Positions 11,482 to 24,902 of a stretch of 64,000 nucleotides of DNA are shown here, piece by piece. Both the position numbers and the translations under genes were made by a program. Positions within the stretch are counted from its first letter, which is position 1. Each line of letters opens with the position of its first letter. This stretch comes from Candidatus Microgenomates bacterium. Lineage in GTDB: Bacteria > Patescibacteriota > Microgenomatia > Daviesbacterales > UBA10151. The stretch covers positions 1,328-65,327 of the forward strand of contig JACOYE010000009.1 of NCBI GenBank assembly GCA_016182045.1, written 5' to 3'. Under the pieces are notes generated by a model. It was not told where the DNA came from. It saw nothing but the letters and a program-made list of their open reading frames with translations, and did not search any database.

Positions 11482-11551
11482 AAAGCTCACGTCGCGAGTT
11501 TTTTTGTGGGAGCATAGTCGAATGTATTTTCTTGTGCTATAATCTAACTAT

Positions 11552-11671
11552 TCTTTCGGGGTTTTGTGTAAGTCAAAATCGGTGGTAAAACTCCACGATC
11601 CCGCACCGTCTGGTGCAGGAACGAACTGGTGAAAATCCAGTAGCGACCGTACAGTCGGAATGAAAGAAAGA
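11552..11671 (+). ncRNA. FMN (RFN)-type riboswitch aptamer, variant
   Basis: TCTTTCGGGG...ATCGGTGGTAAA..CCACGA...CTGGTGAAAATCCAG..GACCGTACAGTCGGAATGAAAGAAAGA follows the RFN P1-P6 layout; extended -10 TGCTATAAT at 11535-11543. Confidence 0.8.
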
Positions 11672-11672
11672 C

Positions 11673-11738
11673 GTCGTCCCCGCGAAAGCGGGGAACCATA
11701 AAATAATTATATGGATCCCAGACTTGATCTGGAATGAC
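11673..11738. repeat. RPE/dRS3-like palindromic element
   Basis: GTCGTCCCCGCGAAAGCGGGGAACCA...TGGATCCCAGACTTGATCTGGAATGAC. Confidence 0.65.
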
Positions 11739-18355: not shown

Positions 18356-19729
18356 TTATTTTTTATTTTTAATATTTACATTTAGTCTTATATCAACTCT
18401 CTCCATATCTCTTGGGAAAAGGGCGGCCTCTCTGATATTTGCAAGACCTAAGATTTGCATGATCATTCTCTCCAGTCCAAAAGAAAATCCTCCCTCAGGC
18501 GGCATACCGTATTTGAAGGCCATTAAATACATCTCAAAATCTTTTGGATCCATGCCGTGAGACTTTATTGACTCGACCAATTGTTGATAGTCATTTATTC
18601 TTTGACTTCCAGACAGTATTTCAATCCCTTTAAATAGTAAATCATAACTTAGGCTGTATTCTGAATTTTTTGGATCCGGCATGGTGTAAAAAGGCTTGGC
18701 AGCAGTTGGGAAATGAGTGACAGTTATAAAATCAGAATTGTGTTTCTTTTTTGCCCATTTGCATAGATCCTGCTCATCTTGGGGTGTTAAATCTTTTTCT
18801 TTCTTATTGTCTCTACCATATTCTTTAAGAATAACTTCCTGAGCTTCTCTTAAAGTTAATCGGGGAATTTTATTATAGACAATCTCCTCTGCACCATATT
18901 CTTTAAGATATAGCTTGGATGAATTTTGAACATGCTCCACCATGCTTATGGCAATACTTTCATAAATATCCATTAATTCATCAAAGGAGGTAAATCCAAA
19001 TTCACAATCCATTTGAGTAACTTCCGCAAGATGCCTGGTAGTGACTGAAGGTTCTGCCCTATATGCTTTGGTAATTGTAAAAACCCTCTCAAAAACAGGA
19101 ACTAACATCTGCTTATAAAGCTGGGGGCTTTGGGTCAAAAATGCTTTATGTTCAAAATATTCTATCCTAAATACCTCCGCACCACCTTCTGTGGATGAGG
19201 CAGCAATGGTTGGAACAACAACTTCAGTACAACCTAATTTTTGACAAACTTGTCTAAATGAAGAAAGCAAAGCTTCTTGGACTTTAAAAATGGCCTTGAT
19301 TTTTGGGTGTCTTAAGCTGAGAGTACGCCAGTCTAAAAGAGTTGGCAGTTCCAAATTAAGAGTTGGACCTCCCATGTCAAATGGCAACTCCGAAGCTTTT
19401 GATAAAATCTCTATACTTTCTGCTGAAATTTCAATTTCTCCAGTGGGAATATTTTTATTGACCAGATTGGTAGGCCTTTTGTTTACCTTACCTATAATGC
19501 AAACCACATCTTGCGGGCTTATCTCACCTCCGAGGTGAGCTGAAGATGTAACCTTGCTCACACCTCGGAGGTGTGTGTCTTGGGATACAACTACTTGTAT
19601 TAACCCAGTTCTATCCAAAACATCCAAAAATAAAATCTTCCCGTGATCGCGCCTGGTCTGAATCCAACCGTAAATGGTCACTATTTCGCCAACTTTATCA
19701 TTACAATCTAAAATTAAAGTTCTTTCCAT
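18356..19729 (-). CDS. aspS: aspartate--tRNA(Asn) ligase, archaeal-type/non-discriminating
   Basis: OB-fold RDHG, LTQSPQLYKQ, YRAE and GMPPEGGFSFGLER; short form without GAD domain. Confidence 0.92.
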   Translation of the reverse strand: MERTLILDCNDKVGEIVTIYGWIQTRRDHGKILFLDVLDRTGLIQVVVSQDTHLRGVSKVTSSAHLGGEISPQDVVCIIGKVNKRPTNLVNKNIPTGEIEISAESIEILSKASELPFDMGGPTLNLELPTLLDWRTLSLRHPKIKAIFKVQEALLSSFRQVCQKLGCTEVVVPTIAASSTEGGAEVFRIEYFEHKAFLTQSPQLYKQMLVPVFERVFTITKAYRAEPSVTTRHLAEVTQMDCEFGFTSFDELMDIYESIAISMVEHVQNSSKLYLKEYGAEEIVYNKIPRLTLREAQEVILKEYGRDNKKEKDLTPQDEQDLCKWAKKKHNSDFITVTHFPTAAKPFYTMPDPKNSEYSLSYDLLFKGIEILSGSQRINDYQQLVESIKSHGMDPKDFEMYLMAFKYGMPPEGGFSFGLERMIMQILGLANIREAALFPRDMERVDIRLNVNIKNKK

Positions 19730-19761: not shown

Positions 19762-19790
19762 TTGACAAGATCAAAAATAATTGCTATATT
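19762..19790 (+). promoter_or_regulatory. sigma70 promoter of attenuator 1
   Basis: TTGACA, 17 nt, TATATT. Confidence 0.75.
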
Positions 19791-19797
19791 GCAAGAT

Positions 19798-19848
19798 ATG
19801 CAAAAACCACAAGGAAGAAATTTTGGTTTCTTCTTTACCTTCGCTTAA
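19798..19848 (+). CDS. Phe-rich leader peptide
   Basis: MQKPQGRNFGFFFTFA*; 5 Phe in the last 8 codons; ATG 7 nt after the -10 box. Confidence 0.65.
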   Translation: MQKPQGRNFGFFFTFA

Positions 19849-19906
19849 GCGGAGGTTGGCCTGCCTGTCGGCAGACAGGTTTTTGCAAAGCTAACTAAAT
19901 TAGACT

Positions 19907-19935
19907 AACCTCCGAGATTATTGCGGAGGTTTTTT
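19907..19935 (+). terminator. attenuator terminator 1
   Basis: AACCTCCG-loop-CGGAGGTTTTTT; the 5' arm can alternatively pair with CGGAGGTTGG at 19850-19859. Confidence 0.8.
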
Positions 19936-19965
19936 AGTGGGTTAAAAAGAAAGGAGGAGATAAAA

Positions 19966-20295
19966 ATGCCAGCAGAATTTGAACAAGGTAAATTTGACAG
20001 ATTTCATATAAAGCTGACTCAACCAGGTAACGAGGAGGTTCATATATTCACCTATTTATTAACTGAGAGTAGCTGTTTAGGCTATCATATTATTCGTGAT
20101 GGTAATGGCAAACTACCAGAAGATCTACTAAGAAGTATCGTAGAGGAAACACCTCCACATAGACAAGCTATCAGTAATCTCCGAAATTCTCTGCGGCTTT
20201 TAGGAAAAAAAAGGTTGATCAATGAATTACCAGAAGATAATCAACCACTAGTTATTTATCAAAGTGTTAAACGGGCAGTTGACAAAAGTAAATAG
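19966..20295 (+). CDS. hypothetical protein
   Basis: AAGGAGG SD at 19951-19957, ATG at 19966. Confidence 0.7.
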   Translation: MPAEFEQGKFDRFHIKLTQPGNEEVHIFTYLLTESSCLGYHIIRDGNGKLPEDLLRSIVEETPPHRQAISNLRNSLRLLGKKRLINELPEDNQPLVIYQSVKRAVDKSK

Positions 20296-20307
20296 GTATT
20301 ATAGTAT
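20279..20307 (+). promoter_or_regulatory. sigma70 promoter of attenuator 2
   Basis: TTGACA, 17 nt, TAGTAT. Confidence 0.65.
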
Positions 20308-20318
20308 GGTTTTATTGT

Positions 20319-20423
20319 ATGTCAAAAACAATTGCTATAGATTTAAAAAGAGTTGAAATTTTGTTTGGCCTCCTTATCTTGGCACTCCTTGGGGGTGCTA
20401 TTTTGGGAGGTCTTTTTAGGTAA
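20319..20423 (+). CDS. Leu/Ile/Gly-rich leader peptide
   Basis: MSKTIAIDLKRVEILFGLLILALLGGAILGGLFR*; 9 Leu and 5 Ile in 34 aa. Confidence 0.6.
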   Translation: MSKTIAIDLKRVEILFGLLILALLGGAILGGLFR

Positions 20424-20452
20424 AATTTAACCTAGAAAAGAAAGGAAATTAG

Positions 20453-20475
20453 ACCTCCCGAAGGGGAGGTTTTTT
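20453..20475 (+). terminator. attenuator terminator 2
   Basis: ACCTCCC-GAAG-GGGAGGTTTTTT; AGACCTCCC can alternatively pair with GGGAGGTCT at 20405-20413. Confidence 0.8.
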
Positions 20476-20486
20476 AATGGGGAAAT

Positions 20487-20720
20487 ATGGAAAGAATGGA
20501 AGGAGAAGAACGCAATTACCCTATTGGATCATTAAATGAGACTATACCCTTAAAGGGTGCTCCACCTCATTCAGACTATCAATCATTAGCAGGTAAACTA
20601 GCATTAAGAAAAGGTCAGGGTCTTGAATATCTTAAAAGGATAACTGACCCGCTTGTTTATGGAAAGAAATATGGTGACCCTGAAGAAAGAAAAAGAAGAA
20701 TAGATGATATAAATGCATAA
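20487..20720 (+). CDS. hypothetical protein
   Basis: 77 aa ORF directly after terminator 2. Confidence 0.55.
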   Translation: MERMEGEERNYPIGSLNETIPLKGAPPHSDYQSLAGKLALRKGQGLEYLKRITDPLVYGKKYGDPEERKRRIDDINA

Positions 20721-20742
20721 ATTATAAAAGGAGGTGGATAAA

Positions 20743-21141
20743 ATGGCAAGATCAGAAGGAGAACCCGGTATGGAAGTAGCTATTCATCAAGATCCCGAGG
20801 AAAATATTGACCGTCTATATGCATCAATGGCTGCAATAGCTAAAATAGGACCAGAGCATGCTACTAGCGTCATATTGAAGACAAGACATTGGATTATTAA
20901 TTTCATACAGGGTGAAAGAGAGAAAATTGGAGATACTGTAAATAAAATCCCTCCTCAGTTAACAGAAGGTGATATGTTTAAAGAAGAAAATGCAATAATG
21001 TATGCGGGTATATTAACAACGCATCTGAGAGAAATGATTGGTAGAGGGGGGACACCTTTACCTGACAAAGCATTGGAAGTCGTTGGAGTCTTCAGTAAAT
21101 GGGTTCGTGAGAAATATAATAATGGTGAAGAAAATCGATAA
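20743..21141 (+). CDS. hypothetical protein
   Basis: AAGGAGGT SD, ATG at 20743. Confidence 0.7.
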   Translation: MARSEGEPGMEVAIHQDPEENIDRLYASMAAIAKIGPEHATSVILKTRHWIINFIQGEREKIGDTVNKIPPQLTEGDMFKEENAIMYAGILTTHLREMIGRGGTPLPDKALEVVGVFSKWVREKYNNGEENR

Positions 21142-21145
21142 TTAT

Positions 21146-22726
21146 CTAATTTATTTTTACATCTTTCACTTTTAATTGCAGTTTTTCATCCCCATTAAAG
21201 TCATTTAACTCTGGGATATATGCCAAATCAATTTGTTGACCATTTTGTAACATGCTTTGTAGATCCCCCATTCCAAAAGCAATGGCATCAAATCCGTCGA
21301 CCTTAAACTTCAGATGTTTGCCTTCACCTACTGTTCTTATATCTGAAACTTGCATCTTTCTTGTTGCAAAAATGGGTCTGGGATTTCCCAAACCAAATGG
21401 CTCAAATTTATTCAATTGGTCAACCAATCCTTTGGTCAGTTGTTTTCCATCTACTTCCGCCTCAATTTGCAAAACCCGTTCCACCTCGTCCGGCAAAGCA
21501 ATCACAATCTCCTCCAGTCTTTTTTTAAATAAAGTAATATTTTTGGTGGCAATGGAAAATCCGGCAGCTTTAGGATGACCCCCTACATCAACCAATAAAT
21601 CGGCATGTTTTCTAATCAGCTCCACAATGTTTACTCCATCAACGGATCTGGCTGATCCTTTAGAAACAGTCTCACCTAAAGATATAGCTATGCTGGGACG
21701 CAGGTACTCATCAGTAATCCTGCCAGCAATAAGACCAATTATTCCCGGCGACCACTTGTGAGATGTCAAAATATGAATTTTTTTACTTCGATCAATCAAA
21801 AGCTTGGCCTGCTCTATTGCGTCTGTTGTAAGCTGTTGACGGGTGGTATTGGTTTCAGATAAAAGTTTAGCCAGTTTTTTAGCTTTTTGCGGATCTTTTG
21901 TGCAAAGTAATCTTAAAGAATCTATGGCATGTTCAAGTCTTCCCATGGCATTAAGACGAGGCCCTAAAATATGGCCAACCTCATAAGATGAGATTTCTCC
22001 CAACATTAGTGATGATTCATTTATTAAAGATAAAAGTCCCAAGTTTGTTGTTCTATTTAGAATTTTAAATCCCTCGAAAACAAACGATCTACCTAAACCA
22101 ACAAGTGGCATTAAATCACAAACCGTGGCAAGGGATACAAATTGCAACAACTCTTCCCTTAATTCCCTTTTCACTATTCCCTCTATTAAACACCAAGCTA
22201 CCGCCGCTCCGCACATCTTGGTGGAATGAACTATCTCATATGCGACAGGTTTTTTATCTAAAGGTAGATGATGATCAGTAATAATCAAATCCAAACCAAT
22301 TTCTCTGGCATATTCTGCTTGTTCCAAGGCAACAATGCCATTATCAACCGTAACAACCAATGATGCGCCTTGATTCTTGGCAAAATCTAAACCCACTTTT
22401 GACAACCCGTATCCTTCTCTTTCTCTGTGCGGGATATATGGTAAAACCTTAGCACCCATCGATGTCAGCCCTTTGTATAGAATGGCTGATCCACAGATCC
22501 CATCAACATCATAATCCCCATATACTATTATCGGTTCTCCATTCTTAATGGCCTGCAAAATTCTTTTTTGAGCTTTTTCAGTTCCTGGAATCTTCAAATC
22601 TTTTTCAAAATCAGAAATCTTAGGATGAAAAAACTGATGCTTTTCTTCTTGAGTTATAAGTCCTCTATTAATTAATAGCTGCTTAATAAGATTATCTGAT
22701 TTTTTCGGGGCTATTCTCCACTTCAT
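21146..22726 (-). CDS. recJ: ssDNA exonuclease RecJ
   Basis: GDYDVDG, TVDNG, ITDHH, GSARS and GGHPKAAG motifs. Confidence 0.95.
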   Translation of the reverse strand: MKWRIAPKKSDNLIKQLLINRGLITQEEKHQFFHPKISDFEKDLKIPGTEKAQKRILQAIKNGEPIIVYGDYDVDGICGSAILYKGLTSMGAKVLPYIPHREREGYGLSKVGLDFAKNQGASLVVTVDNGIVALEQAEYAREIGLDLIITDHHLPLDKKPVAYEIVHSTKMCGAAVAWCLIEGIVKRELREELLQFVSLATVCDLMPLVGLGRSFVFEGFKILNRTTNLGLLSLINESSLMLGEISSYEVGHILGPRLNAMGRLEHAIDSLRLLCTKDPQKAKKLAKLLSETNTTRQQLTTDAIEQAKLLIDRSKKIHILTSHKWSPGIIGLIAGRITDEYLRPSIAISLGETVSKGSARSVDGVNIVELIRKHADLLVDVGGHPKAAGFSIATKNITLFKKRLEEIVIALPDEVERVLQIEAEVDGKQLTKGLVDQLNKFEPFGLGNPRPIFATRKMQVSDIRTVGEGKHLKFKVDGFDAIAFGMGDLQSMLQNGQQIDLAYIPELNDFNGDEKLQLKVKDVKIN

Positions 22727-24264: not shown

Positions 24265-24355
24265 CGTCATTGCGAGGAGTAAAACGACGAAGCAATCTTG
24301 ATAGAATTAAATTAAATAATCATTAAAAGATTGCTTCGCTTCGCTCGCAATGACG
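24265..24355. repeat. RPE-like palindromic element
   Basis: CGTCATTGCGAG...GAAGCAATCT...AGATTGCTTC...CTCGCAATGACG; a sibling copy lies in frame in cca (23217-23285). Confidence 0.8.
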
Positions 24356-24449: not shown

Positions 24450-24902
24450 ATGGGACAAATATCTAAATATCCTATCTCTAAAGACGTGGCTGATAGAATT
24501 TTTGATGTATTTATTAAGTCTTTCATTAAAGTTAAAAATGACAAGGATGCTCAAATTTTGGCCAATGATTTATTCACACCTACTGAAAGAATCATGTTGG
24601 CAAAAAGACTTGCTATTGCCTTTTGTTTAATGCAAGGATATGAATATAGAGAAATTTCCAAACTCTTAAGAGTAAGCGTAACTACTGTTGCGTCTGTAAA
24701 TATGACATTAAAATACGGTAGCAATGGTTATAGAACCATACTTGAGCGGATTAATAAAGAAGAAAAGCTTGAGGATCTATTCAAAAATATCGCCGAGAAA
24801 GTTTTAGCAATGGGTTCTTATGGCAAAGGTAGTGGGACTTGGAGATACTTACGAGCAGAAGTTCAAAAGTCTAGGGATAAAAAATTAAAAAAGCCATTTT
24901 GA
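24450..24902 (+). CDS. TrpR-like (YerC/YecD) HTH protein
   Basis: LFTPTERIMLAKRL...YREISKLLRVSVTTV. Confidence 0.85.
   Translation: MGQISKYPISKDVADRIFDVFIKSFIKVKNDKDAQILANDLFTPTERIMLAKRLAIAFCLMQGYEYREISKLLRVSVTTVASVNMTLKYGSNGYRTILERINKEEKLEDLFKNIAEKVLAMGSYGKGSGTWRYLRAEVQKSRDKKLKKPF

Follow-up and report, generated by a model that had tools for sequence, protein, structure and literature searches.

The window analysed here, a stretch of 64,000 nt from a Candidatus Microgenomates bacterium, contains two regulatory modules and three cargo open reading frames between aspS and recJ, and their coordinates are listed in Table 1. The first-pass annotation had described a common plan for the two modules, with a TTGACA promoter, a short upstream open reading frame (uORF) and an ACCTCC-loop-GGAGGT-U6 terminator, and had placed them between aspS and recJ; coordinates and promoter scores agree with both statements. 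The GGAGGT that it had located near the uORF stop is present in both modules, 2 nt past the stop in module 1, while in module 2 this decoy belongs to the uORF itself and precedes the end of its stop codon by 18 nt. The module 1 promoter points away from aspS in a divergent arrangement, the leader peptide reads MQKPQGRNFGFFFTFA followed by a stop, and its ATG is only 7 nt past the -10 box, so a leaderless start is likely; the ATG of the module 2 uORF is 11 nt past the -10 box. The core motifs GGAGGT, ACCTCC, GGAGGT and T6 are found at 19851, 19908, 19925 and 19930-19935 in module 1 and at 20406, 20453, 20465 and 20470-20475 in module 2, where the 2:3 duplex has a computed energy of -19.2 kcal/mol.

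Table 1. Features of the aspS-recJ interval and its flanks (positions in the window).
Feature	Coordinates	Strand	Remarks
aspS, aspartate--tRNA(Asn) ligase	18356..19729	-	Non-discriminating type; divergent flank
Module 1 promoter, TTGACA-17-TATATT, extended TG	19762..19790	+	Sigma-70-type, 11/12; consensus match only
Module 1 Phe leader ORF	19798..19848	+	16 aa, 5 Phe
Module 1 segment 1, anti-antiterminator	19837..19844	+	Thr-Phe-Ala codons; 1:2 hairpin -11.6 kcal/mol
Module 1 segment 2, antiterminator arm with GGAGGT	19849..19859	+	2:3 duplex -18.0 kcal/mol
Palindromic repeat, then T5, inside module 1 leader	19860..19879	+	20 nt
Module 1 terminator 3:4 and U6 tract	19907..19935	+	-11.2 kcal/mol; 3' arm Shine-Dalgarno-like
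ORF1, cargo of the Phe switch	19966..20295	+	109 aa; strong Shine-Dalgarno (SD) at 19950; ORFan
Module 2 promoter, TTGACA-17-TAGTAT	20279..20307	+	10/12; overlaps ORF1 end
Module 2 Leu leader ORF	20319..20423	+	34 aa, 9 Leu plus Ile/Val
Module 2 segment 1 (20367-20374, Gly-Leu-Leu codons), inner hairpin, segment 2 (20405-20413)	20367..20413	+	
Module 2 terminator 3:4 and U6 tract	20452..20475	+	-14.5 kcal/mol; ATG immediately 3'
ORF2	20487..20720	+	77 aa; weak ribosome-binding site; ORFan
ORF3	20743..21141	+	132 aa; strong SD at 20727; predicted four-helix bundle
recJ	21146..22726	-	Convergent flank

The palindromic repeat within the module 1 leader is missing from the 9 other leaders compared of the module 1 subtype. 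Together with the following T5 it could form a second terminator, and the insertion may silence or damp the module. By pattern search this 20-nt palindrome gives 2 to 4 counts genome-wide, and further palindromic repeats occur in aspS (19525, 19561), at the recJ start (22734, 22782) and in cca (23216, with an inverse copy at 24327). When all 905 kb of the genome were scanned for promoter-uORF-terminator units, 4 distinct leaders emerged, among which only modules 1 and 2 have an antiterminator match of at least 6 nt, and the same scan of 3 locally shuffled genomes gave 0 matches. A third such unit, with a 23-aa leader and without the GGAGG decoy, lies on the minus strand near a contig end (G000:C11, near 993). 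On the minus strand at 20325-20298, a perfect 12/12 sigma-70 consensus overlaps the module 2 promoter antisense to ORF1; it is not conserved, the -10 scoring 5-6/6 in only 2/21 similar leaders. Elsewhere in the window there are an FMN riboswitch (11548-11675) and a Trp-repressor-like protein (24450-24902).

The three cargo ORFs are orphans, as had been claimed for them: among 5.8 billion proteins, each retrieved only itself as a homologue of similar length, Pfam and NCBIfam gave nothing above cut-off for any of them, and a search of the ESM Atlas provided no usable lead. The structure model of ORF1 has a pLDDT of 44, and the N-terminus of ORF2 shares 7/8 residues with a Leu-switch cargo in L056. 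Among 95 genomes, ORF3 has a single match (26% identity, E 0.004), a Leu-switch gene of G007 at the corresponding locus; this favours a genuine gene that evolves fast. ORF3 is modelled as a four-helix bundle with a pLDDT of 65, its best structural comparison being with DinB/YfiT four-helix proteins (Z 8.2, rmsd 3.8, 109 aligned), tied with an apolipoprotein, and with a fold search that returned nothing at E<=0.001 there is no decisive fold assignment. The chance of the observed stop-free length is 1e-4 per start for ORF1 and 2e-5 for ORF3.

Many further instances exist in relatives, as expected if the attenuators form a family that senses translation, can be reused and takes interchangeable leaders, which the first-pass annotation had envisaged; the single regulon that it had also proposed is better replaced by a set of independent cis switches. 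The core pattern was detected in 47/95 family genomes in its strict form (0 control matches) and in 84/95 in a looser form (1 control match), in 149/401 class genomes (2 control matches; this tally takes in one unpublished genome, on which nothing else stated here depends), and in 15/301 phylum genomes (1 control match), with 11/282 outside the class. A very strict module 2 pattern recovered 22 contigs among 185,579 species, of which 7 are labelled Ca. Daviesbacteria, Microgenomates or Patescibacteria and 15 "uncultured Gammaproteobacteria", labels that we infer to be placeholders. A total of 254 distinct elements was sampled, hand-picked among the matches listed, with 48 further matches of the looser family scan and 86 of the class scan lying outside the sample; a promoter was present in 221 and a uORF in 242. 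Either aspS or recJ accompanies 41/48 large loci, the commonest order being Phe-then-Leu, and the aspS-recJ gap is proposed to be a conserved slot for switches whose cargo turns over quickly. The Leu switch is strongly conserved over dozens of genera with non-cognate cargo. The CCTC...GAGG-U type of terminator also occurs at G000:C11:172925 (+), C11:143762 (-) and C1:61066 (-), after structured leaders that by eye presumably resemble SAM- or ZTP-type riboswitches, and two proteins downstream of these three terminators have Glu-containing N-terminal tails.

The sampled elements comprise 69 aromatic, 75 Leu, 35 Ile, 21 Cys and 16 Thr leaders besides some minor classes, and the amino acids covered by the family are Phe/Tyr/Trp, Leu, Ile, Thr, Cys and Lys/Thr. 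Leader codon bias, which had been named beforehand as a check, lies far above the control windows, with best-residue enrichment at p<0.01 in 69% of leaders vs 10% of controls. Aromatic leaders precede prephenate dehydratase, DAHP synthase, PheRS or TyrRS, giving a Phe-pheA/aro pairing; Ile leaders precede citramalate synthase, acetolactate synthase, threonine dehydratase or IleRS (cimA/ilvB/ileS); Thr leaders precede ThrRS (thrS) or aspartokinase; and Cys leaders precede cysteine-synthase-like enzymes (cysK-like) or CysRS. Within the module 1 subtype, 2/10 leaders stand directly before prephenate dehydratase (L035, L040). The leader residue matches the cargo pathway in 56/62 labelled cases (permutation mean 16.2, max 31 of 20000), an effect size that is indicative, since the labels were hand-assigned after the leaders had been seen, the relatives are not independent and some uORF starts are mis-called (e.g., the third module of L031). 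The 62 cases are those of the 242 elements in which one of up to three cargo ORFs belongs to a Pfam pathway class, and the other 180/242, with ORFan or unrelated cargo, lie outside the count. From this match in relatives, the switches are read as classical ribosome-mediated amino-acid attenuators in their modelled logic.

The cargo at this locus is non-cognate, and the 75 Leu-class elements include only one clear cognate case (a leuA-like gene in L053, beside an Ile-led CimA); Leu sensing therefore rests on codon content. Leu leaders make up 39/48 of the elements chosen by RNA sequence alone. The CCTCC segment forces part of the Leu content, and outside this segment Leu amounts to 26.7% vs 10.4% genome-wide, the former figure being partly circular because the class itself is defined by Leu. 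Several other arrangements were observed among the sampled elements. A Leu-type switch lies ahead of RelA/SpoT genes in L073 and L074, after a short ORF in the former and directly in the latter, and in L041, L050 and L047 the switch core precedes greA...lysS and valS, with leaders that have no obvious cognate run. In L204 (G206), a Thr-rich leader is followed by a gene resembling epimerases/dehydrogenases and by an aminotransferase gene, which may be a Tdh/Kbl pair, and L193 (G024) has a Lys/Thr leader before two amino-acid kinases and then dapB, the short kinase having a Glu-containing N-terminus and the full, ACT-bearing one lacking it.

The leaders, hairpins and U-tract terminators of the two modules are predicted to be ribosome-mediated attenuators, a reading to which we give a probability of about 85%, and they would permit read-through under a shortage of charged Phe-tRNA or Leu (branched-chain)-tRNA. 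Translation would begin at the RNA 5' end or close to it; a ribosome stalling on the cognate codons would cover segment 1 and leave segment 2 free, so that the 2:3 duplex would form, block the terminator and let transcription proceed into the cargo genes, while a ribosome running on would cover segment 2 and 3:4 would terminate transcription. Features typical of a classical attenuator are found here, namely a short leader ORF in which cognate codons are clustered, exclusive 1:2, 2:3 and 3:4 pairings with a U-tract terminator in computed folding, and, with a modelled footprint on nascent RNA, a stall that frees segment 2 and a ribosome at the stop that masks it; cognate-pathway genes are not found downstream at this locus. 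In the ribosome-footprint folding of nascent RNA, with an A site +12 nt assumed, P(2:3) of module 1 reaches 1.00 while the A site is at F11-T14 and falls to 0.00 at F15-stop, as it also does in ribosome-free RNA, and that of module 2 is 0.93-1.00 at E13-G26 and 0.00 at A27-stop, the unloaded nascent module 2 folding ambiguously. In the full module 1 leader at equilibrium, the terminator still wins with a ribosome at F11-T14 (P 0.96-0.98); therefore, the switch needs co-transcriptional kinetics.

Two features that the search did not impose were compared across 249 elements: the 2:3 helix extends by 1.79 pairs with the cognate partner vs 1.21 with swapped partners (max 1.41 of 2000), and the segment-1 motif is present in 78% vs 21% when shuffled. 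The leader ATG lies 6-13 nt past the -10 box in 167/211 cases, which suggests leaderless starts across the family. An ATG or GTG is found 5-10 nt after the GGAGG of the terminator in 168/254 elements; therefore, the terminator arm is probably a Shine-Dalgarno sequence, and the same hairpin would also hide the start site. This is probably why the GGAGG/CCTCC core is shared, as one SD-based core would explain its reuse across switches.

No match to prephenate dehydratase, the shikimate enzymes, CimA, LeuA, IlvA or IlvB was found in this genome, which is 92% complete, consistent with the earlier suggestion of a likely auxotrophic bacterium. Since the genome lacks the tested Phe and Leu pathways, the switches would report the outside (host) supply of amino acids, that is, fine amino-acid sensing in cells without the matching pathways. 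In addition, the amino acid that governs a gene can be read from its leader peptide, so that many CPR ORFans receive a first functional label through this family.

What the cargo does with such a signal allows a more tentative proposal, in which the same switches control exported cargo (committed-step enzymes in relatives, small effectors here) that might raise the host amino-acid supply. Microgenomates epibionts could, by this rather doubtful sequence-based account, use plug-and-play stalling sensors, one per amino acid, to detect host under-supply and then export proteins with an N-terminal Glu tag that push host biosynthesis; the exported set would conceivably consist of CimA, LeuA, IlvB, prephenate dehydratase and DAHP synthase, or of ORFan effectors including the three here. 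Cognate cargo in relatives is often one lone committed-step enzyme. An aconitase/LeuC or IlvD match was found in none of the 6/6 genomes with an attenuator-led citramalate synthase, LeuB in none of the 5/5 attenuator-led CimA genomes tested for it, IlvD in none of 4/4 IlvB-cargo genomes, AroC in none of 9/9 genomes with a stand-alone ~315-aa prephenate dehydratase and chorismate mutase in none of the 5/5 tested, although the genomes compared for missing steps are 85-100% complete, and AroC is present in 20/95 genomes. KARI gave weak partial matches in 4/5 IlvB/IlvA genomes (34-43 bits, ~100/165 positions). A ~22-aa N-terminal extension is shared by all 7 aligned lone prephenate dehydratases. 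Glu occurs in residues 2-6 of 91/115 short first cargo and 57/96 later cargo proteins, against 11/83 and 5/37 (16/120) flanking genes and 180/962 genome-wide, and by hand in 23/28 lone enzymes vs 3/31 full-operon enzymes, a bias that ORF1, ORF2 and ORF3 all fit; in these counts, however, the starts were eye-chosen, many enzymes are orthologues, the first-cargo Glu may stem from a conserved ATGGA context, and three aspartokinases are counted among the lone enzymes, their pathways lying outside the missing-step checks. The genome encodes one VirB4/TraG-like ATPase, but no TraG-D_C match was found. The DSRP and GIL motifs of prephenate dehydratase are regulatory, and the lone dehydratases keep DSRP/GIL-like motifs, so they are not plainly feedback-proof, and feedback resistance was discarded as unsupported. 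Some Phe leaders, moreover, head whole shikimate operons or tRNA synthetases, and the lone enzymes could also act on imported intermediates. CPR bacteria are said to have a "patchy metabolism", and if the proposal is true, their lone committed-step genes would raise host supply rather than being decaying remnants.

Two further explanations depart from the attenuator reading itself or from its present function. Relic switches, whose cognate genes were lost and which now head fast-changing and mostly non-functional ORFs, would account for the absence of similar-length homologues of the three ORFs, for the scarcity of resemblances among cargo ORFans, for the repeat inserted in module 1 and for the unmatched cognate pathways of this genome; we consider this improbable, as the Leu switch has been conserved over dozens of genera despite its non-cognate cargo, ORF1 and ORF3 have strong SD sequences and improbable stop-free lengths, and ORF3 finds its only match in 95 genomes under a Leu switch at the same locus. 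Less probable still is a reading of the module 2 leader as a small membrane protein, or as a membrane or arrest peptide of the MifM/SecM kind, that senses translocation or an antibiotic instead of leucine. With a 19-residue Kyte-Doolittle value of 2.54 the peptide is strongly hydrophobic, and Val and Ile are also common in Leu-class leaders. Arrest-peptide sensors such as SecM and MifM are marked by an arrest motif conserved at the C-terminus and by a translocon gene downstream, whereas the reading frame over GGAGG varies among the 75 leaders (43/19/13), so no C-terminal arrest motif is kept, and no sec/yidC or resistance gene appeared as first cargo in Pfam scans. The module 2 peptide is also too short to reach the translocon from the stall window, and the Leu-leader copy ahead of the LeuA-like gene speaks for leucine.

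Comparison with described systems starts from Rfam, in which a scan of the region gave nothing at gathering score; Phe_leader reached 20.8 bits against a gathering score of 55, over module 2, and Leu_leader was absent from the matches at E<=5. A T-box or metabolite riboswitch was also considered and rejected, as the scan found no aptamer matching an Rfam model at the locus. A literature search that covered few subscription papers returned nothing on CPR attenuators, so the suggestion of an undescribed system holds to that extent, while the mechanism is classical and relatives often have ordinary cognate cargo. According to PMC3082878, the E. coli pheL-pheA attenuator (Rfam RF01859) has a run of Phe codons, 1:2/2:3/3:4 logic and a U-tract terminator, and the pheL genes treated there come from gamma-proteobacteria. 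Module 1 has the same three features, and its relatives directly before prephenate dehydratase share the gene order of pheL-pheA; unlike pheL, the modules here likely have a leaderless uORF, an SD-like core common to many amino acids and ORFan cargo. Listeria Rli60 shows similar attenuation logic with Ile sensing tied to a host signal (PMC5864092), and attenuator-like leaders precede ilvB in Actinobacteria (PMC1262725). The Streptomyces ilvB and leuA leaders resembled attenuators, yet mutation showed non-classical behaviour (PMC1262725), a caution that look-alike leaders can fail mutational tests and one that applies to our main reading. The family here resembles leuL/ilvL-type, actinobacterial ilvB and Rli60 leaders in its leaders rich in branched-chain codons, its terminator and antiterminator and its conserved complementary triples; those leaders control complete ilv-leu operons, whereas here leu genes hardly ever follow the Leu switch, and the cognate cargo often consists of a single lone enzyme. 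Leaderless short ORFs reportedly serve as amino-acid sensors in the mycobacterial poly-Cys attenuators (bioRxiv 10.1101/834739), a likeness extended by the Cys-rich leaders of the present family; the latter has intrinsic terminators and covers many amino acids. What is new is a lineage-wide CPR attenuator family, without an Rfam match, and what is known is the classical mechanism of amino-acid attenuation that it shares with these systems.
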